Source: an archaeon
Lineage (GTDB): Archaea; Iainarchaeota; Iainarchaeia; Iainarchaeales; 1-14-0-10-31-34
Direction of reading: 5' to 3'
Length of the DNA: 11,103 bases
Assembly (NCBI GenBank): GCA_043815885.1
Contig: JBDRIL010000023.1
Span: 1 to 11,103 of the forward strand
Under the pieces are notes generated by a model. The model made no database searches and had not been told where the DNA came from. It saw only the letters and a list, made by a program, of their open reading frames with translations. The translations under genes and the position numbers were made by a program. The first letter of the stretch is position 1; each line of letters starts with the position of its first letter. Shown here piece after piece: positions 933-9,715 of this stretch.

Positions 933-2186
933 TTAGGTTCCTTCTTCCCAAGAGGCAAGGTATTTCTTTTGTTTTTCTGTTAGTTCATCGATTTTTATTT
1001 CCATTGTCTTTAGTTTTAATGCAGAGATTTTCTCGTCTATTTCTTCAGGGACAGAGTAAACCTTTTTCTCCAGCTTTCCCTTGTTTTTTGCAACGTATTC
1101 AGCACAAAGGGATTGGTTAGCGAAACTCATATCCATCACTGTCGGGGGATGGCCTTCTGCTGCAACCAAGTTAATCAGCCTTCCCTCTCCCAAGAGGAAA
1201 ATTCTTTTTCCATCTTTTAGAATGTATTCTTCCACGAATTCCTTTATTCTCTTTTTTGATTTGCTTAAGGCTTCAAGTTCAGGGATATTTATTTCTACAT
1301 TGAAGTGCCCTGAATTAGCTATAACGCATTTGTCTTTCATTGCCTCAAAGTCTTTTTTGGTTAAAACATCAATGTCTCCGGTCATTGTAACAATTAAATC
1401 TGCATTCTTTGCTGCTTCATCCATTTTCATTACCCTGAACCCGTCCATTAGTGCTTCCAGTGCCTTCAATGGGTTTACTTCTGTTACAATTACGTTTGCC
1501 CCCATTCCCTTTGCTTTTAAAGCAAAACCTCTTCCGCACCATCCATAGCCTGCAACTACTACTACTTTTCCTGCAAATAAAATATTTGTTGCTCGGAGAA
1601 TTCCGTCTATAGTGCTTTGGCCTGTTCCATACCTGTTGTCGAACATGAATTTAGTGTGGGCGTTATTAACTGCAATTATGGGGTACTTTAATACCTTGTC
1701 TTTTTCCATTGCTTTAAAGCGGATTACTCCTGTGGTGGTTTCTTCTGTTCCGCCCCAAATTTCTTCAAAGCAGTCCTTTCTTTTGGAGTGAATTGTTGAA
1801 ACCAAATCTCCTCCGTCATCCATTGTAATGTTTGGCTTTTTGTCCAATACAGAGTTAATGTGGGAGTAATATTTTTCGTTGTCTTCTCCGTTTACTGCAA
1901 ACACCTCTATCCCGTAATCTTTTACCAGAGAAGCTGCAACGTCGTCCTGAGTGCTTAATGGATTTGAGGCACATAAATAGGCTTCTGCCCCTCCTGCCTT
2001 TAGTGTCCGCATTAAGTTAGCGGTTTCTGCTGTTACGTGCAGGCAGGCAGCAATCCTTACTCCTTTCAAGGGCTTTTCTTTTTCAAATCTCTGCCTAATG
2101 CTTTCCACTACTGGCATCTGGCCATCGCTCCATTCAATTCTCTGTTTTCCTTTTTCGCTTAACTTTAAATCCTTTACGTCAGACAT
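933..2186 (-). CDS. ahcY: S-adenosyl-L-homocysteine hydrolase (adenosylhomocysteinase)
   Basis: Motifs CLHVTAETA, SNPLSTQD, DDGGD, EETTTG, KFMFDNRYGTGQS, GYGWCGRG, GHF, GRLINL..AEGHP..VMDMSF. GGGAGG RBS at 2195-2200 on the minus strand. Confidence 0.98.
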   Translation of the reverse strand: MSDVKDLKLSEKGKQRIEWSDGQMPVVESIRQRFEKEKPLKGVRIAACLHVTAETANLMRTLKAGGAEAYLCASNPLSTQDDVAASLVKDYGIEVFAVNGEDNEKYYSHINSVLDKKPNITMDDGGDLVSTIHSKRKDCFEEIWGGTEETTTGVIRFKAMEKDKVLKYPIIAVNNAHTKFMFDNRYGTGQSTIDGILRATNILFAGKVVVVAGYGWCGRGFALKAKGMGANVIVTEVNPLKALEALMDGFRVMKMDEAAKNADLIVTMTGDIDVLTKKDFEAMKDKCVIANSGHFNVEINIPELEALSKSKKRIKEFVEEYILKDGKRIFLLGEGRLINLVAAEGHPPTVMDMSFANQSLCAEYVAKNKGKLEKKVYSVPEEIDEKISALKLKTMEIKIDELTEKQKKYLASWEEGT

Positions 2187-2249
2187 TCATTTTTCCTCCC
2201 ACAAAAGAATACATATTATAAAAAGAAAAAGAATAAAATTGTTTTCTGG

Positions 2250-2963
2250 TTATGTATGGATTCCTTCCCATGGGATTTCTTCTTTTGGCCTTACAATGAT
2301 TCCTGAATCACTTATTTCATAGGGGTGAGCACTCTTTGAATGCATTGTTCCGCGCATTTTTCTTACGAAAATGGATCTGTGCGGGGGATGAAAGAATAAA
2401 GCGATTACTCCGTCTGCAACGAATTCCTCTACTCCAAAAGCGCTTAGCTTCGTTTTTTCTCCTGTTGTTTCAGTGGTGAGAACTGTAGTGCAGTCTAATT
2501 TCTTTAATCCGTCAGTAAATGCAAATAATGTTCTCCTCATTGCCGCAGCGCCCCTTATCCACATTGCCAGTGCAGTAGTGGAATCAATAACCAGTCTGGT
2601 TGCCCCCATTTTTTCAATGTATTCCTGGATAATGTTTAATTCTTCCATTACTTCGTCTTCCACGTCTGCTACTTCTTTTTCAGCTAAATTTAATTTATAT
2701 ATCTTGAATAATTCCTTGTCCTGCAACTTCTTTATGTCCCAGTTAAAGTTCTCCATGTCCCATGTAATGTTCTTTAGATTTGTTTCAAGCGTTACATACA
2801 GTCCTGGTTCATTGAATTTAGTTGCGCCTTGGTATAGGAACTGGGTTGCGAGAATGGTTTTTCCTGTTCCTGTCCCTCCTGCAATCAGTATGGAGGAACC
2901 TCTTGGAAGACCTCCCTGGATTAATTGGTCCAATCCTTCAATTCCTGTAGGGATTCTCTTCAT
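2250..2963 (-). CDS. Single-domain KaiC-like / RAD55-family ATPase (COG0467 type)
   Basis: RIPTGIEGLD start, Walker A GGTGTGKT, YVTLE, Walker B RLVIDS, EEFVADGVI, VRKMRGT. GGTGG RBS upstream. Confidence 0.92.
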   Translation of the reverse strand: MKRIPTGIEGLDQLIQGGLPRGSSILIAGGTGTGKTILATQFLYQGATKFNEPGLYVTLETNLKNITWDMENFNWDIKKLQDKELFKIYKLNLAEKEVADVEDEVMEELNIIQEYIEKMGATRLVIDSTTALAMWIRGAAAMRRTLFAFTDGLKKLDCTTVLTTETTGEKTKLSAFGVEEFVADGVIALFFHPPHRSIFVRKMRGTMHSKSAHPYEISDSGIIVRPKEEIPWEGIHT

Positions 2964-3025
2964 TAAAAACCACCAATACTAATATGTTGTAATAATTAAT
3001 AAATGTTTCTTTTTTACATTGAATA

Positions 3026-3721
3026 GTGACTGACAAAAACTACTCCTTAAACCATGAAGACTTGGTGAAACTGATTGAAGAACCGGAATGGAAGACCATT
3101 CTGCTTGAATTAGTTAATTCAGAGAAAATGGATCCATGGAACATTGATTTAGTGAATCTGGCAGACAAGTATCTGGCAAAAATTAATTCCCTTGAAGAAA
3201 GCAATTTAAGGCTTCCAGCCAATGCAATCCTTGCATCAGCAATCCTCCTGCGGGCAAAATCAAAACTATTAAAGCTTTCTTCAATTGAGGACGAAGAAGA
3301 AAAGAAAAAAGAAGCAGAGAAATTCATTGAGGAATTTGTTCCGGAATTAAACAACCCTAGAAGCATTCGTGAAGGAAGGATTTCACTGGATGAACTGGTT
3401 AACGCAATAGAAAGCATTGTAGATAAGACCAAAAAAAAGCATGAAAGAATGAGGCTGAAGAAAGAACTGGAATTCATGATTCCCTATGCAGAGGGAAACA
3501 TTGAGGAACGAATTGGAGAAGTATACAATAAAGTTTTAGAAATAAGTGACAGCCAGGGAATGGTCCTGTTCTCCAATTTAGTGGAAGAAAGAACTCCAAA
3601 AGGAATGGTCAATGTATTCATTCCATTGCTATTTCTCGCCAACCGAGGAAAACTGAATTTATTCCAGGAAGAATTCTTCGGAGAGATCTTTATTTATATG
3701 GCAAAAAACAAGGATCCCTAA
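3026..3721 (+). CDS. scpA: Segregation and condensation protein A (kleisin subunit of the SMC complex)
   Basis: MDPWNIDLV.LADKYL, A.AILASAILLR.KS, ISLDELVNA, and a C-terminal winged-helix signature FIPLLFLA..GKL.LFQEEFFGEIFI. GTG start. Confidence 0.92.
   Translation: MTDKNYSLNHEDLVKLIEEPEWKTILLELVNSEKMDPWNIDLVNLADKYLAKINSLEESNLRLPANAILASAILLRAKSKLLKLSSIEDEEEKKKEAEKFIEEFVPELNNPRSIREGRISLDELVNAIESIVDKTKKKHERMRLKKELEFMIPYAEGNIEERIGEVYNKVLEISDSQGMVLFSNLVEERTPKGMVNVFIPLLFLANRGKLNLFQEEFFGEIFIYMAKNKDP
3668..3721 (+). repeat. scpA 3'-end repeat, copy 1 (the functional gene end)
   Basis: GAAGAATTCTTCGGAGAGATCTTTATTTAT matches 7699-7728 at 25 of 30 positions; the first 14 bp are identical. Confidence 0.85.
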
Positions 3722-3732
3722 ATACTTGTAGG
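3702..3732 (+). repeat. Boundary motif B copy overlapping the scpA stop codon
   Basis: CAAAAAACAAGGATCCCTAAATACTTGTAGG aligns to 5840-5868 CAAAAAACACGCAT--CTAAATATTTGTAGG at 26 of 31 columns. Confidence 0.7.
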
Positions 3733-3761
3733 AATAAAAACACAAGTTTAATTGAAGGAGG

Positions 3762-5639
3762 CTATTCACATCCATAACACATGCATTTACATTTCTCATC
3801 TATACAAAACGGTTTATAACCTTCCTTTACAGGCGTATCATATTTTGAACAGTCGATATTTAGACAATCTTCATCTGAACTGCATTTCTTTTCCACCACC
3901 TCTATGGTGATGGTGTTGGAGGTCAACTTAGTTAAAGATTCTACCTCGTTATTTTGAGTCTTTTTAAATACTGTAAGATATAATTTTATTGTATGTTTTC
4001 CTATTGAGGAATAGATCTCATTCCAATACTGAGACCTACCCATATAATCACTACCTAACTCATAGATTTCTTTTAAACTTTCGCCAGGTGCTAAAAAGAA
4101 ATTCGTAACTTTAAGTCCATCTAACACACACCCAAAACACCCTATTGAATCTGGACCGACGGCTTTATCAATTTCAAAAGACAAACTTCCGCCAGGGATA
4201 AAACGCTCTAACATCAAAATCTTATCTTTACCTATATTCTTTACCTCATATTCTATCGTTATTTTCTCATCTGCCTCATACACTTGCTTATCTGATTTGA
4301 TGGTGAGTTGGAGAAGTTCTGCTGTTTCAGGTATTACTTCTATGTAAATATCCTTTGAATACAAGAGAATTTCAGGGGTATCTTGATAAGGAGTAATTTT
4401 ACTGTAGCCTGTCGTATCATAAACTCCTCTAATTCGATAATAACGTTTATCCAGCTCCTGCTCAAAAATGTTTGATAAATCAAAATGTCGGTATTCTATT
4501 TTACCCCAATCTTCACTCTTGCTGTTGAGATAAGCAAAAAAAGAATGTTTTTCTCCAGATTTCAAGACAATCTTATCTGGACCAACTGGAGCAACCACTG
4601 ATAAACCAATTAATCAAGTATCTGTCCTTATTACAGCCCCATTCTCTTCTAAAATCTGAAAGTAAAAAACCTTGTTGAAATCATTTTTTCCTGGAGTAAG
4701 AAGATTTAAATCTTTTTCACCAGTATTTTCTAGAGTAACTTTTATTTTGAAAGGCTCATCTCTTCTAAAAATATATACTCCCCATTCCTCCATTGCAGCT
4801 CCAACAGGTTCAACAGATACTTTAAGGTTCTCAGCAATAGAAATCTCTTCTGGAATTTTTGCATTTCCAGTCGTAAATATTGATGAAGAAGCAATGAATG
4901 GAAAAGTTTCCTCTAAAGAATTAAAATCTTTTGGTTCCTTTTTGGCGTATCTGTTCTGGAATCTATAAACTCCTGGTTCTCTAATGCCAAAGGTGTAAGC
5001 TAAGCGAGCGATTAAATCAATAGAATAAATGACTTTCTTCTGAGAGTCTATCCTGTTAGCATTTGGTGGAAAGTAACAATCTAACATGATATCAGGATAC
5101 CATGTTTCCCATTCAGTACCATTCCATTTAAGAAGATTAAGAGGAAAATTACTGCAAGAAGGAATAAACCAAATGTCTGTATCCAAATTATTCTTTATTG
5201 TTACCGTAACGTTAATGTCTTCTCCAATATCATAGTTTGTTTTATCAGTAGAAATGGTTAATGCTTCCTCTTTGGTTTTTGTCTTGATACAGTTATTGTT
5301 AATACATTTGCAGGTGTATTGGTCCCAGTCGGCTCCGGCGCAAGCTTCACATGCAGCGAGGAATGGCGGCCTATTTGAGGGATCAGGATATGCATCCTCA
5401 AGCAATTTATTCATTCTGCGTTTAGCTTCATTCTTGTTAATGCACACCCATTCCTTGTCGGCATAATAGCAGGAAGGGCATGGACTGTCCACGCTAAGAC
5501 CAGTATAAAAGAACTCACAATCAGAATCACTTAAACACTCTTGAGGTGTTTTTTCTGGTTCAACTTTTTCTTCAATGCATCCACTAAATAAAATTATTCC
5601 AATCAAGCAAATTAATGCAATTAATATCTTTTGATTCAT
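3762..5639 (-). pseudogene. Cys-rich multi-domain surface lipoprotein (625 codons) interrupted by one in-frame TGA at 4614-4616
   Basis: ORFs 4614..5639 and 3762..4598 share a frame, separated by TGA plus TTA ATT GGT TTA TCA. Lipoprotein-like signal MNQKILIALICLIGIILFSGC. CxSDxDC Cys-rich modules near both ends and three beta-rich Ig-like repeats; the stop falls inside the second. Confidence 0.75.
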
Positions 5640-5765
5640 TATAATAATAAAAAGTCCTTTTTTGTTAATATTCCTTTCGTTTTTGAATCAATTAAAACTA
5701 ATTCAGTCCAGTATCAAAACAATATCGAAAACGATTTGTATTCCAAAAAGCTACAAAACACCCCG

Positions 5766-5813
5766 TTCTTCGGCGAAATATTTGTTTACATTAAAGAAAA
5801 AAATGATTCTTAA
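5766..5813 (+). repeat. scpA 3'-end repeat, copy 2 (reads FFGEIFVYIKEKNDS*)
   Basis: 5766-5809 matches 7705-7748 at 43 of 44 positions and translates to a homolog of the ScpA C-terminus. Confidence 0.92.
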
Positions 5814-5835
5814 AAAAACAGAACTTTTTATTACC

Positions 5836-5868
5836 CCTACAAAAAACACGCATCTAAATATTTGTAGG
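5836..5868. repeat. Palindromic boundary motif B, full copy (8-bp inverted arms, 17-nt spacer)
   Basis: CCTACAAA-N17-TTTGTAGG is a perfect inverted repeat. Related sequences occur at 3702-3732, 5751-5761, 6616-6648 and 7679-7698. Confidence 0.7.
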
Positions 5869-5900
5869 TCTAAATGAGAAGACAAAAAAAATTTCAGATG

Positions 5901-5942
5901 CAGAAACATTTAAATAAACTTACGCGTATATACTGGTATATT
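5901..5942 (+). promoter_or_regulatory. Putative archaeal promoter (BRE + TATA) with a palindromic operator candidate
   Basis: CAGAAA at 5901-5906, TTTAAATA at 5909-5916 and palindrome ATATAC-TG-GTATAT at 5928-5941, just before ATG 5943. Confidence 0.55.
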
Positions 5943-6161
5943 ATGGGAAGTTACAGTAAATGCAAATTTCGTCCTTCAAAGCATGCAAAAGACAAAATGA
6001 TTGAAACAGGCTTATCTAAGTTAGAGATCCTGGATGCAATCTTGAGGGGGGCAAAGAGAACCTTTGAAAACAAAATATTATCGGCATTCAAGGGATTTGA
6101 AGTCATTTACAGGCAGTTTCCCTGTAATTATTTTATTATTACTGTGTATTGGAAGAAATAG
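5943..6161 (+). CDS. DUF4258-like putative toxin (RelE/BrnT-like RNase fold), 72 aa
   Basis: SKHAKDKM, I.DAIL.G and C-terminal IITVY are typical of DUF4258. Start moved from 5874 to ATG 5943 because of the TATA box position and family length. Confidence 0.7.
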   Translation: MGSYSKCKFRPSKHAKDKMIETGLSKLEILDAILRGAKRTFENKILSAFKGFEVIYRQFPCNYFIITVYWKK

Positions 6162-6172
6162 GTGATGAAGAA

Positions 6173-6496
6173 ATGAATTGCCCTATATGTAATGAAAAAA
6201 TGAAAAAAACAAAGGAGCCGTATTTCTTTGGAGACATCAAACTAGGAGAATTTGAGGCAGAAAAATGCACTAAGTGCAAGGAAGTTTTTTTCACAGAGCA
6301 CGCATCTGACAAGATTGATGCAAAGGCAAAGGAACTTGGTTTATGGGGAATCGGCAAAGAAGGAACGCTTGGTTATAGTGGAAACAGCATAATAGTAAGG
6401 GTTCCAAAAAAGATAGCTCAATTCCTGAAATTCAAGGAAGGAAAAAAAGTATTCATTCATCCAGAAGGAAAGAAAAAACTAGTTGTAGAAGCATGA
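6173..6496 (+). CDS. Putative antitoxin: YgiT/MqsA-type zinc finger fused to an AbrB/MazE-like DNA-binding domain, 107 aa
   Basis: MNCPIC...CTKCKEVFF zinc ribbon; C-terminal GNSIIVRVPKKIAQFLKFKEGKKV AbrB signature. AGGTGA RBS at 6160-6165 supports ATG 6173. Confidence 0.8.
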   Translation: MNCPICNEKMKKTKEPYFFGDIKLGEFEAEKCTKCKEVFFTEHASDKIDAKAKELGLWGIGKEGTLGYSGNSIIVRVPKKIAQFLKFKEGKKVFIHPEGKKKLVVEA

Positions 6497-6523
6497 AAAC
6501 TTTATTAGATTAAAGAAAAAAAT
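6495..6523 (+). repeat. Degraded scpA 3'-end repeat
   Basis: GAAAACTTTATT-AGATTAAAGAAAAAAAT vs 5775-5804 GAAATATTTGTTTACATTAAAGAAAAAAAT: 25 of 30 columns, the last 15 identical. AT-rich, so less certain. Confidence 0.5.
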
Positions 6524-6615
6524 TAAGAGGGGAAATTATGAGAAGATCAATCCGAATAACAAAAAAAATTTATGGAAAACAAAATAGATTAAACAGGGGC
6601 TCTCAAGGAATTTTT

Positions 6616-6648
6616 ATTACAATGAACACCTGTATTTTATATTGTAAA
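6616..6648. repeat. Palindromic boundary motif B, diverged full copy
   Basis: TTACAAT-N17-ATTGTAA has the same spacer length, and AACAC at the same offset, as 5836-5868. Confidence 0.55.
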
Positions 6649-6666
6649 TAAAAACCTATCGTTATA

Positions 6667-6696
6667 TTTAAAAATACACTTGTATAATGTATTGGT
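6667..6696 (+). promoter_or_regulatory. Putative TATA box and palindromic operator of the MNT-HEPN operon
   Basis: TTTAAAAA at 6667-6674, about 25-30 nt before ATG 6697; ATACA-CT-TGTAT at 6674-6685. Confidence 0.5.
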
Positions 6697-7245
6697 ATGC
6701 TGGAAAAGTATGCTTTGATTAAGGCAATTCAAGTTCTGACATCCAGTCCTAGAACAAGTTTTTCTGTTAGGGGCTTGGCTAAAAAGGCAGCCCTTAGCCC
6801 GGGCGCAGCAAGAATTTCATTGGATTACATGCATAAGAAAGGCATTGTTTCACTGAAGGTAATTGGAAAAACATACCAGTACAAAGCTGACTTGGAAAAC
6901 CCGTTATGCAGGCAATGGAAAACCCTGTTTAATTTGGATAAAATTATTGACTCAAAACTTATCGAGCAAACCGTGAAAAAGATTCCGCAAATAATTTCTA
7001 TCCTGCTGTATGGCAGTTTTGCAAAGGGAACAAATGACGAAAAAAGCGACATTGACTTGCTGGTAATTTCCAGCCAAAAGAACAAAGCCGATTTTGATTT
7101 TGCAAAAAAGCTTGGCAAGGAAGTTAATATTTCGATTTTTTCCCTGCCAGAGTGGAAAAAAAAGGCAATTACTGACAAAGTCTTTTATGAAAATGTCATT
7201 TATGACTCTATTGCCTTATTTGGAGAAAAACCAGTGGTTACATGA
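6697..7245 (+). CDS. Minimal nucleotidyltransferase (MNT) antitoxin with an N-terminal winged HTH
   Basis: GSFAKGTNDEKSDIDLLVI fits the GSx10DxD motif. N-terminal SVRGLAKKAALSPGAARISLDYMHKKGIV is wHTH-like. Confidence 0.88.
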   Translation: MLEKYALIKAIQVLTSSPRTSFSVRGLAKKAALSPGAARISLDYMHKKGIVSLKVIGKTYQYKADLENPLCRQWKTLFNLDKIIDSKLIEQTVKKIPQIISILLYGSFAKGTNDEKSDIDLLVISSQKNKADFDFAKKLGKEVNISIFSLPEWKKKAITDKVFYENVIYDSIALFGEKPVVT

Positions 7246-7697
7246 ACATTGAAGAATGCATAGAACAGGGCCTGCTGGTTGAATCAAAGCCAGACCTTGA
7301 GAAGGCAGAATCCTCAGTTGAGATGGCCCAGCATAAACTGGAAATTGCTGAAACCGAATTTAAATACAAGCTGTTTGAAAGCGCTATCATTAGCGCTTAT
7401 GCTTCTATGTTTCATTCTGCACGCGCCCTATTGTTCAGGGATGGCTTTAAGGAAAGAAGCCACTTTGCAGTCTATGTTTATGTCAGCGAAAAATATTCCA
7501 GTAAAATCGAAAGAAAATACCTAAGCGAACTCAATTTCCTTAGGCTGCAAAGGCATGAATTAATGTATGGCCTGGGAAAACACATCAAACTTCAGAAGTC
7601 AGAAGCTGACACAACAATAAAAATAGCCAACGGCTTTCTCCAAGCAATCAAAAAAATACTGCAAGAAAAGAAAAGGGCCAAAGAAAACGGCTCCTAA
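7242..7697 (+). CDS. HEPN domain protein (UPF0332/COG1895-like), partner of the MNT
   Basis: AYASMFHSARALL...G..ERSH and R..RH...Y motifs; ATGA stop/start overlap with the MNT gene. Confidence 0.85.
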   Translation: MNIEECIEQGLLVESKPDLEKAESSVEMAQHKLEIAETEFKYKLFESAIISAYASMFHSARALLFRDGFKERSHFAVYVYVSEKYSSKIERKYLSELNFLRLQRHELMYGLGKHIKLQKSEADTTIKIANGFLQAIKKILQEKKRAKENGS

Positions 7698-7698
7698 A

Positions 7699-7770
7699 GA
7701 AGAATTCTTCGGCGAAATATTTGTTTACGTTAAAGAAAAAAATGATTCAGGGAATAAAACAGGTTCTTAA
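7699..7770 (+). repeat. scpA 3'-end repeat, distal copy (reads EEFFGEIFVYVKEKNDSGNKTGS*)
   Basis: Begins one base after the HEPN stop codon. Matches copy 2 at 43/44 and the functional scpA end at 25/30. Confidence 0.92.
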
Positions 7771-7828
7771 TGTCGAAAGGATTAAATGGGTTGATTTATT
7801 AAACTCTTTTTTTCATAGACTGTACGAA

Positions 7829-9715
7829 ATGAAGGCAATTGAATTAGGGAAGGATTTGTGGAATAATTCTTTAATTCTTTCTGGGGGAAAGGGCTTTTTC
7901 TTTAGGCACTGTGATTCAGGGTTTAAAAGCAAGTGGAGTGGATTATGGAAGGATAACAAAAAGTACTTGGAGTATTATTCATTCAGGGTGAATGGAGAAT
8001 GGTGCGGAGAAAAAGCTGTAAGGAAAGCCTTTTTTGACGGAGTGAAGGCTGTCTATGAATATATTGTGAATGGGGTTAAGGTAAGGGAGACATTGCTTGT
8101 TCCTGAAGGGACTTCTTCTTTAATTATTTTAATTGAGTCAGCCAGGGAAATAGAGTTGGAATTGGAGTTGGGGGTAAACATCAGGAGAAGGGAGGAAAAC
8201 TTTACTGGAAGAATTTATGGAGCTGAATTCAGTGAAAAAAGGTTAAGGGCATGGAATGAGTTAGGGGAAATTGCAATTGAAGGAAATTTTTGTTTTGAAG
8301 CAAACTATCATTACAAGGAGCATTTTCCTTCAGGGGAAAGGCAGGACTGCTTTATTCCAGGAAAAATAAGCGCTAAAGGAAAAAAAATAATGTTTTTATT
8401 GAAGCCGAATGAAGGCAGTTTAATTGAGGGCTTCAAAAAAGAATTAAAGGAAAAGGAAGGAATTTATTCTTCGCTTACACGGGGAATGATTGACTGCAAT
8501 GAAAAAAGCATTGTTGAAGGATTTAACTGGAGTGTAATCGGATTAAAGCTATTGGAAAACAATGAAAGCTATTATGCTGGTTATCCTTGGTTTCTGCAGT
8601 ACTGGGGAAGAGACCTTTTATGGAGCCTTCCCGGAATAATTGATTTGGGTTATTTTGGGAAAGCAAAAAAAATTTTATTGAATTTGTTTGAGAACAGCAG
8701 AGAGGGAAGAATTCCGAATTACATTGAGGAAGGGAAGTGCTGTTTTAATTCAATTGATTCCTCTTTATTGTATGTAATTGCCTTGGAACATTTCGCAATG
8801 AATTCAGGGGAAAAAGATTGGCTGAAAGAAAAGCCAGAGCTATTGGAAGGAGTAATTGATTTCATCCTGAAACAAGATTTGGATAAGGATGGATTGATTG
8901 AACACGACTTAAAGGAAAACGAGACATGGATGGATACATTGAATAGGAGAGAGAAGGCAGTTGAAGTGCAGGCACTCTATATTGAGGCACTGGATTCTGC
9001 AAGGAATTTATTTGAATTATTGGGGCGAGGGGAAAAGGCAACTGAATTAAGGAAGATGGAAGCAGTATCCAGAAAAGAATTCAGGGAGAAATTTTCATTG
9101 AATGGATTTTTTGCGGACAGAATAATTGAGGGAAGAAAGGATGGAGTGAAGGCCTGCAATGCATTGGTTCCTTTAATGCTTGGAATAGGGGAAGAGAAAG
9201 CAGTGAATGAATTCGAGAAAGAAGTTTTTTCAACTGAAAAAGGCATTAGGGGCAGGGCAAGGGGAGAGGAAGGATACAGTGGAGAAGGATATCATTCTGG
9301 AAGGGTATGGAGTCTTGCCACTGCATGGATGAGTGCAAGTGAATTCAGGCTGGGGAGAGCAGAGAAGGGAATGCATTACCTGAATATCTTATTGAATGAA
9401 TTAAAGCATAACTGCATTTCAGGGATAGGCGAGACATGGAATGGAGAGACAATGCAGGAAAACGGCTGCTGCATGCAGTTATGGGGCAATGCATTCATTC
9501 CAAGAATAATAGATGAATTCATGCTTGGAATGAAAGTGAATGCATTCGAGAAAAAGATTTCCCTGAAGCCAGTGCTTCCAAAAGGAATCAAGTTCATTAA
9601 GCGAAGAAAGAGGATTGGAGGAAAATGGATTAACCTGAAGATTGAGAGAAAGGGAAAAAAGATAAAAGCAGAAAGCAGTAGTAAGCAGTTCAGGATCCAG
9701 ATAGAAAACATTTAA
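7829..9715 (+). CDS. Amylo-alpha-1,6-glucosidase (glycogen debranching enzyme, GDE_C domain)
   Basis: AGYPWFLQYWGRD, GRIPN, NSIDSSL, TWMD, AVEVQAL and YH.G.VW motifs. Start moved from 7721 to ATG 7829, since the 5' extension overlaps the scpA repeat and a TATA-like TTTATTAA lies at 7795-7802. Confidence 0.88.
   Translation: MKAIELGKDLWNNSLILSGGKGFFFRHCDSGFKSKWSGLWKDNKKYLEYYSFRVNGEWCGEKAVRKAFFDGVKAVYEYIVNGVKVRETLLVPEGTSSLIILIESAREIELELELGVNIRRREENFTGRIYGAEFSEKRLRAWNELGEIAIEGNFCFEANYHYKEHFPSGERQDCFIPGKISAKGKKIMFLLKPNEGSLIEGFKKELKEKEGIYSSLTRGMIDCNEKSIVEGFNWSVIGLKLLENNESYYAGYPWFLQYWGRDLLWSLPGIIDLGYFGKAKKILLNLFENSREGRIPNYIEEGKCCFNSIDSSLLYVIALEHFAMNSGEKDWLKEKPELLEGVIDFILKQDLDKDGLIEHDLKENETWMDTLNRREKAVEVQALYIEALDSARNLFELLGRGEKATELRKMEAVSRKEFREKFSLNGFFADRIIEGRKDGVKACNALVPLMLGIGEEKAVNEFEKEVFSTEKGIRGRARGEEGYSGEGYHSGRVWSLATAWMSASEFRLGRAEKGMHYLNILLNELKHNCISGIGETWNGETMQENGCCMQLWGNAFIPRIIDEFMLGMKVNAFEKKISLKPVLPKGIKFIKRRKRIGGKWINLKIERKGKKIKAESSSKQFRIQIENI

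Follow-up and report, generated by a model that had tools for sequence, protein, structure and literature searches.

Repeated scpA tails and the modules between them

The stretch of DNA analysed here (the window) is a complete 11.1-kb contig (C23) of genome G000, a metagenome bin of 1.16 Mb in 62 contigs that is 92% complete and comes from a groundwater archaeon of the DPANN order Iainarchaeales. It carries scpA, which encodes a condensin subunit, and behind scpA lie copies of the last codons of this gene (tails), with short groups of accessory genes (cassettes) between them. We designated the tail presently on scpA as T1, the downstream copies as T2, T3 and T4, and the cassettes as A, B and C (Table 1). 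T1 reads EEFFGEIFIYMAKNKDP followed by a stop and is the genuine scpA end; T2 reads FFGEIFVYIKEKNDS and T4 reads EEFFGEIFVYVKEKNDSGNKTGS, each also with a stop. T1, T2 and T4 all lie on one strand, as direct repeats of the scpA 3' end.

A first-pass annotation of the sequence had claimed that the scpA tail recurs at T2 and T4 in nearly identical form, and a blastn-short search of the full 1.16-Mb genome bore this out. The results showed that 5766-5809 and 7705-7748 are identical at 43 of 44 positions (E 1e-16), and the search found no further copy of T2/T4 outside the window; owing to the one mismatch, the longest exact run common to the two is 24 nt. T1 and T4 are identical at 25 of 29 positions (E 4e-4 within the 4.3-kb region). 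Over the 30 nt encoding EEFFGEIF(I/V)Y, T1 differs from the displaced copies at five positions, four of them synonymous third-position changes and the fifth an I/V exchange, as the annotation had read them, and beyond these conserved 30 nt the T1 sequence diverges from T2 and T4. In all eight same-family relatives (8/8) the C-terminal end of ScpA reads QE[ED][WF][FL]GE[IV][FV]I and continues into a variable tail. The repeated motif is the true ScpA C-terminus. The scpA gene itself, the single match in the genome, is intact with a substitute end: the QEEFFGEIFI motif is retained and a stop codon is present.

The annotation had also listed a decayed copy, T3. Its location agrees with the left boundary of the MNT-HEPN module, but in local alignment to T4 it scores 18 at best, a value reached by 203 of 30,737 genome windows of 150 nt, and its exact part is a low-complexity 14-15-mer. 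We therefore rejected T3 as a proven tail copy on score statistics and kept it as a candidate only. A second repeat was also found: 3702-3738 and 5840-5874 agree at 30 of 37 positions with one 2-nt gap, and the 15-mer CTAAATAYTTGTAGG inside it occurs twice in the genome and no more.

We then characterized the cargo of the cassettes. An accessory module had been described before each tail, and Pfam searches confirmed this for the DUF4258/AbrB and MNT-HEPN modules. The MNT gene matches PF01909/PF18765 and the HEPN gene PF05168, and the two genes overlap by 4 nt; against the MntA model the MNT protein scored 34 bits, below the cut-off of 60. The adjacent genes are predicted to form an MNT-HEPN (type VII) toxin-antitoxin (TA) pair. 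Cassette A had been described as a lipoprotein module. Two minus-strand open reading frames (ORFs) lie between T1 and T2, with a signal peptide and a lipobox noted by eye only, and the 341- and 278-aa products matched no Pfam, NCBIfam or PHROG family. The two ORFs are separated by a single TGA between IRTDT and LIGLSVV, and a JGI contig (L029) that is 99.68% identical to the window over 1278-4738, and so runs through T1 into cassette A, carries the identical TGA. They could represent a nonsense-broken 625-aa secreted protein, a read-through product or two genes.

The T2-T4 interval of 1.9 kb holds both the DUF4258/AbrB and the MNT/HEPN modules between the near-identical 44-nt repeats. B and C probably came in together as a composite unit in which the inner junction T3 was already decayed, and this single arrival may have been moved in trans. 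The idea that the newest cassette lies nearest scpA found no support: among the copies the closest resemblance is that of T2 to T4, which have the weak T3 between them. Neither Rfam nor tRNA searches gave a match in the window.

Table 1. Features of the window, in the order listed, with the evidence for each.
Feature	Position	Strand	Remarks
ABC ATPase gene		-	First gene listed in the window
SAH hydrolase gene		-	Second gene listed
KaiC-like ATPase gene		-	Third gene listed, before scpA
scpA	3026..3721	+	231 aa, intact; PF02616 E 1e-15; NCBIfam ScpA models
T1, tail presently on scpA	3668..3721	+	attL-type junction; core TTCTTCGG... from 3674; att profile E 0.002 (core)
Distal repeat r1	3702..3738	+	T1 end plus 17 nt; copy at 5840-5874
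Cassette A cargo	3762..5639	-	Two Cys-rich secreted/lipoprotein-like ORFs, 341 and 278 aa, in one frame; TGA at 4614-4616
T2, displaced scpA tail with own stop	5766..5813	+	Cassette A/B junction; att profile core only, E 0.014
Distal repeat r2	5840..5874	+	Copy of 3702-3738; ends at ATG of the DUF4258 gene
Cassette B toxin candidate, DUF4258	5874..6161	+	PF14076 E 3e-5, slightly below cut-off
Cassette B antitoxin candidate	6149..6496	+	N-terminal Zn-ribbon and C-terminal MazE/AbrB fold; PF04014 E 5e-5; weak MqsA-type CxxCG match
T3, possible decayed B/C junction	6496..6534	+	Weak; location agrees with the left boundary of the MNT-HEPN module
MNT-HEPN module including upstream control region	6613..7669	+	MNT 6697-7245, HEPN 7242-7697; Pfam
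Right-end arm (P arm), conserved	7662..7704	+	Overlaps the HEPN 3' end; GCAAGAA box at -44
T4, displaced scpA tail	7699..7770	+	attR-type junction; adjoins the debranching-enzyme gene
Glycogen debranching enzyme gene, far side of array	7742..9715	+	PF06202 E 2.5e-29; start uncertain: ATG 7742 (inside T4) or ATG 7829
Glycogen synthase gene		+	Last gene listed in the window

Displaced tails, integrases and junctions across Iainarchaeales

We investigated scpA loci in 196 genomes of the order, in which the closest ScpA is 62% identical to that of the window (G, C and L numbers are our handles for genomes, contigs and loci). Among 37 scpA loci from other genomes, three (G005, G022 and G033) had a clear second tail behind scpA in the same orientation; a further locus was doubtful, and a match on the opposite strand appeared fortuitous. 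A strict FGEIF[IVM] pattern gave 158 matches in 118 of the 196 genomes, compared with 24 matches for the reversed control. Eleven genomes had two or three matches on one contig and strand (G000, G005, G083, G089, G092, G108, G116, G022, G168, G033 and G178), and no genome had two matches on one strand in the reversed control. Looser protein-motif scans of the fetched loci added G084, G031, G127 and G020, with four tails across two contigs in G127. Displaced scpA tails were found downstream of scpA in at least 15 of the 196 genomes; this number is a minimum, since such sites are frequent break points of assemblies. These findings agree with the earlier suggestion that scpA is a capture hotspot, and they support the scpA 3' end as an integration hotspot general in Iainarchaeales.

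The cassettes in the other genomes measure 0.4-5 kb, and their cargo, assigned with Pfam, is mostly of the TA type: MNT-HEPN in G083 and G031, Fic/DOC in G089 and G005, and further PIN, ParE, MazF, HicA/HicB and a DUF6036 nucleotidyltransferase. Cargo outside the TA group includes a PEP-utiliser domain protein in G022. In G092 (L096, C41; 435-1882), a 418-aa asparaginase/GatD-like gene lies on the opposite strand between the scpA tail and a displaced copy; it is apparently of a housekeeping type, yet it occupies a cassette position. Just beyond the scpA islet of G005 (L027, C12; 4069-6441), purD holds an intein with a LAGLIDADG domain.

Integrase genes were found directly behind scpA in three genomes, where they begin 37-90 nt after the rebuilt scpA stop. 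In G033, a 478-aa tyrosine integrase (PF00589, 48.7 bits; cut-off 27.1) begins 37 nt past the scpA stop, and a displaced tail lies 10.7 kb further downstream. G084 has an integrase 70% identical to that of G033 in the same position, with a displaced tail 12.6 kb on, followed by thiI. Among the products of this 12.6-kb element (L091, C3; 1135-13678) are a scaffold-like protein and a large terminase subunit (phrog_2, E 3e-49). Its length is insufficient for a full tailed virus, which makes it a defective provirus or a satellite-like element. G020 has two integrases: one lies behind scpA where the contig ends, and the other (71% identity to the G033 enzyme) lies on a different contig behind a bare tail fragment. 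The two are presumably a tandem pair, a linkage of the contigs that we infer. An alignment of the three scpA-adjacent integrases showed R246, K272, H344, R347, W369 and Y379 to be invariant, and we take these to be the catalytic R..K..HxxR..[HW]..Y residues of tyrosine recombinases. Among the best 30 integrase homologues in the order, three adjoin scpA tails and nine adjoin tRNA genes, indicating that the scpA-targeting enzymes belong to an ordinary element-integrase family. A scan of viral contigs with the integrase alignment gave no matches.

A recombinase encoded elsewhere in the genome had been considered a possible source of activity in trans, and G000 does have tyrosine types, namely a XerA-like gene (C36) and a single element-type integrase (C49). 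A search for serine recombinases in this 92%-complete genome gave none, and neither tyrosine gene was linked to the scpA site by any evidence found. The C49 integrase (13861-15164; 288-327 aa) has an exact 36-nt direct repeat just upstream (14936-14971 and 15129-15164), with a 26-nt copy 11 kb away (3521-3546), and ARAGORN called no tRNA gene near it. As it adjoins its own 36-nt repeats, its candidacy as the scpA-site enzyme is unsupported.

To describe the anatomy of the site, we compared the junctions. Displaced copies start at TTCTTCGG or TTTTTCGG, with breakpoints at TTCGG in the sites of many genomes, and left and right junctions have an FGEIFI-coding core in common, which is exact over 18 nt in G033. 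In the window, GAAGAATTCTTC (coding EEFF; 3668-3679 and 7699-7710) forms a perfect 12-nt palindrome at the left core boundary, which is absent from relatives with EEWF. In the left junctions of one element family, an element-encoded tail, ISIVK and a stop, is followed by the integrase promoter region; this tail was found in 9 of the 196 genomes, with 0 control matches. The right junctions carry a conserved arm of about 45 nt. Type 1 of this arm runs from GGCAACAARAAT to CCTAAAGGAGAA with the core directly after it, and a second type was seen in G116 and G127.

A right-arm profile was built from 10 type-1 sites, all from genomes other than that of the window. Its best match in the window's genome was T4 (7662-7726, E 3.9e-8), and besides T4 only the T1 and T2 cores fell below E 1. 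Because the profile covers the left side of T4, the extra GAAGAA of T4 is arm (CCTAAAG.AGAA) and not a longer scpA piece; the differing 5' breakpoints, which had been cited in favour of joining by homology, therefore fail as evidence for it. T4 reads as a canonical right junction, with arm, core and then chromosomal sequence. A GGCAA[CG]A[AG] box was found at -44 to -46 in 9 of the 10 sites and also in T4, and its reverse complement lies at +50 or +51, beside the integrase promoter, in three attL sites. These boxes at about -45 and +50 are candidate arm-type binding sites. The left-arm (integrase-promoter) profile matched nothing beyond the core in the window, and a likeness of CTAAATACTTGTAGG to the G033 arm remained an impression. 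Likewise, the T2 left flank (ATCAAAACAAT..CTACAAAACAC), which by eye resembled a decayed arm, was not significant in the right-arm profile search.

Next, empty and filled sites were compared. In family f20, 9 of 15 fetched loci contained scpA. Here scpA abuts thiI in G088, G103, G082 and G096, the aligned regions being about 40 to 370 nt apart, and G083, G089 and G084 have tail-bounded inserts between scpA and thiI. In G087, thiI was not found within 4 kb of scpA, and three loci terminate at contig ends. G093 (L129, C1; 3100-4940) has a 1.8-kb gap between scpA and thiI in which no displaced tail was detected, possibly an old cassette that has lost its boundary entirely to decay. In genus g2, the next gene of G007 lies 27 nt past scpA, whereas G005 has a 2.7-kb insert.

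The cassettes also showed relationships that differ from those of their hosts. The MNT-HEPN module of the window is 73.4% identical at the nucleotide level over 1060 nt to an scpA-site cassette of G031, a member of another family; the MNT and HEPN proteins are 73% and 73% identical, compared with 46.6% for ScpA. Similarly, G005 and G089 have in common the Fic gene (75% identity) and a 213-aa ORF (81%), with ScpA at 54.5%. As the identity of the cargo is far above that of ScpA, these results indicate transfer of cassettes from one family to another, with insertion at the same site. G005 further keeps an integrase-promoter arm with the integrase absent, and has a core-less arm relic between two cargo genes, which parallels the weak T3. 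G005 thus appears to display the decay path, with integrase loss by deletion.

Origin of the array and competing explanations

We consider it likely that the array arose by site-specific accretion at an scpA attachment site (attB) by tyrosine-integrase elements, followed by integrase loss. The last conserved scpA codons, (W/F)FGEIFI with core TTYGGNGARATHTTYAT, would act as the chromosomal attB, at which a family of tyrosine-integrase elements in Iainarchaeales would insert. An incoming element would bring its own core copy and a replacement tail, so that scpA stays intact and the old tail is pushed downstream, and repeated insertion would lead to a tandem stack of elements behind scpA. Later deletions would strip the integrases and most of the cargo and leave short cassettes bounded by scpA tails, with TA pairs over-represented among the survivors, probably since they resist loss. 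The window may be such a stack past integrase loss, composed of cassette A (T1-T2) and the B+C unit (T2-T4), which terminates in the conserved right arm. We infer that an integrase made the joins, and the integrase genes would then have been lost by deletion. The first-pass annotation had named both a recombinase acting in trans and homology-anchored recombination as possible mechanisms; the integrases behind a rebuilt tail in G033, G084 and G020 and the arm at T4 favour the former over joins of the latter kind.

Several observations weigh against this reading. Pfam searches of the window ORFs found no recombinase, as the annotation had stated, and no member of the scpA-adjacent integrase clade was found in the window's 92%-complete genome; the C49 integrase shares 39% identity with the G033 enzyme (residues 168-393) and is located elsewhere. 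T1 is not of the element-type tail ISIVK, the att profile covers only the core of T1 and T2, and cassette A has no arms recognisable with the right- and left-arm profiles. The displaced copy of G005 reaches 24 nt further into scpA than the others, and breakpoints are thus not fully uniform. The comparison of empty with filled sites, which the annotation had proposed and which found both kinds in f20 and g2, covered sister lineages of the window only. In addition, a relative in run X4 (about 92% identical) has an scpA tail ending in ISVVEKKDS and a stop that is nearer T1 than T2/T4 in a hand alignment of 30 loose letters, so that either T1 or T2/T4 may be the native tail of the window. Given the lack of an integrase in the window and the integrases at scpA of relatives, we classed the window as an integrase-less derivative array and not as an autonomous element.

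A more far-reaching possibility, which we regard as tentative, is that the mini-cassettes are still mobile and form an integron-like DPANN gene-capture system, moved in trans at a condensin gene. The mini-elements would then consist of cargo, an arm of about 45 nt, the scpA core and a short left arm, and the integrases could reside on proviruses, plasmids or other genomes; this arrangement is doubtful to the same degree. Trans mobility would fit the full-length arm kept on cassettes with unrelated cargo, the presence of cassettes common to different families, and the inverted boxes at about -45 and +50.

The accretion could instead have been anchored by homology, in which case DNA with short homology to the scpA end would enter by Campbell-type or flank-guided recombination and duplicate the tail. 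T2 and T4 do have a short homology of 44 nt, and both the further reach of the G005 copy into scpA and the lack of att arms in cassette A would suit such joins. A comparison of strains points in the same direction. A metagenome scan with ScpA found one near-identical contig, L029, the other nine relatives being at most 58% identical. All 11 mismatches between the window and L029 fall in 1887-3251 (SAH hydrolase, KaiC and the first third of scpA), and none falls in 3252-4738 (the remaining scpA and cassette A), which resembles a tract over the scpA 3' half and cassette A. This pattern suggests a recent common recombination tract and that strains also swap the whole islet by homologous recombination. 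However, exchange of a ready-made island between strains is compatible with joins made by an integrase. Moreover, the TTCGG breakpoints are constant in many genomes, integrases adjoin the site in three genomes, and the conserved non-scpA arm beside the core, T4 included, is unnecessary for homologous recombination. We therefore judge homology-anchored accretion to be unlikely.

Replacement of the tail by a free-standing homing endonuclease that brings a recoded gene end seems highly improbable. The new tail does differ mostly at synonymous sites, as expected of a cut-resistant recoded end, but the window ORFs gave no HNH, LAGLIDADG or GIY-YIG match, and no such family was found in the 63 of 73 candidate ORFs checked in the arrays of ten loci. 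The only LAGLIDADG match was the purD intein of G005, and the first slot, where anything mobile is present, holds a tyrosine integrase.

We give an equally slight chance to an assembly artefact, in which strain haplotypes would have been mis-joined at the common tail sequence. Such an error is conceivable in a 62-contig metagenome bin of which the window is a whole 11-kb contig, and read support is limited to low-depth Logan contigs from four groundwater/sediment runs. Against it, the exact stretch of T2 and T4 is only 24 nt, independent assemblies span T1-A, A-T2-B, B-T3-C and HEPN-T4, and the same architecture was found repeatedly in many unrelated assemblies. The join of T1 and cassette A is covered by L029; Logan contigs span T2 (4760-5859 and 5747-5910), T3 (6428-6708) and HEPN into T4 (7588-7770), so that the joins, about which the annotation had urged caution, are supported by independent assemblies, from T2 onward by low-depth contigs. 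Regions uncovered in runs X2-X4 were not counted as evidence. No circular junction or cassette-skipping join was listed among the low-depth Logan contigs of the four runs, which is uninformative either way.

Run X4 also contained pieces of the MNT and HEPN genes (6737-6887 and 7331-7482) that differ from the window by 1 letter per about 150, whereas its core-gene and DUF4258 pieces (279-556, 3086-3564 and 5931-6223) are 7-8% different. This contrast may reflect either two populations or an MNT-HEPN module recently passed between species.

Significance and comparison with known systems

Literature searches, full-text included, did not find scpA named as an integration or attachment site. DPANN mobile elements are barely charted, and the finding names an order-wide integration hotspot in these archaea, the scpA 3' end, together with its putative core, arms and cognate integrases. 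Accessory islets can be recognised in annotation by a further stretch encoding FGEIFI behind scpA, and the natural attB/attP/integrase sets might be turned into genetic tools for these organisms, which at present lack any. The finding also indicates that a gene-tail cassette array without a visible integrase can nonetheless be integrase-made. If the mini-cassettes do move in trans, reduced genomes would have a common exchangeable pool of toxin-antitoxin and defence genes.

Accretion of integrative elements is familiar from bacteria, in integrase-less cis-mobilizable elements (CIMEs) and in the composite islands of staphylococcal cassette chromosomes (SCC) at the rlmH/orfX 3' end of staphylococci, where each unit ends in a copy of the terminal bases of the target gene. 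There, recombinase-less units sit beside recombinase-bearing ones and are movable in trans. These systems are bacterial and use other recombinases (serine Ccr for SCC), and the trans mobility shown there would be the counterpart of a movement that is proposed for the scpA cassettes.

Chromosomal integrons with TA cassettes are said to be one-directional stacks of small cassettes at a fixed platform, many of them TA cassettes. The scpA array is likewise a one-directional stack of small cassettes at a fixed platform with many TA cassettes. However, integrons have the integrase at the platform and attC hairpins, whereas at scpA the integrase lies inside the elements, and coding-tail copies with an arm form the boundaries. 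An integron identity was rejected, as the G033 integrase scored 20.3 bits on the integron-integrase model (cut-off 265) and the window has no integrase. The tycheposons of Prochlorococcus are reportedly tyrosine-recombinase elements at a conserved gene end, with islands of cargo and remnants between partial target repeats. Their target is reportedly tRNA genes in a marine cyanobacterium; here it is the coding gene of a condensin subunit in DPANN archaea, with TA-dominated cargo.

In the retrieved passages, a review of archaeal tyrosine recombinases describes attB sites that lie within protein-coding genes, as well as tandem integration and the loss of integrases, and names as such targets the genes for an HMG-CoA reductase, metal efflux and an AsnC regulator (PMC8371274). 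The integrated elements in these passages resemble the scpA array in having a tyrosine integrase, an attB in a coding gene, several elements per locus and integrase loss (PMC8371274). Unlike the scpA case, the passages mention neither scpA nor DPANN (0 occurrences of DPANN), and the short TA cassettes with conserved arms are a feature of the scpA site that they do not describe (PMC8371274). Taken together, the scpA array is a fresh instance of a familiar process, an integrase-less cassette array.

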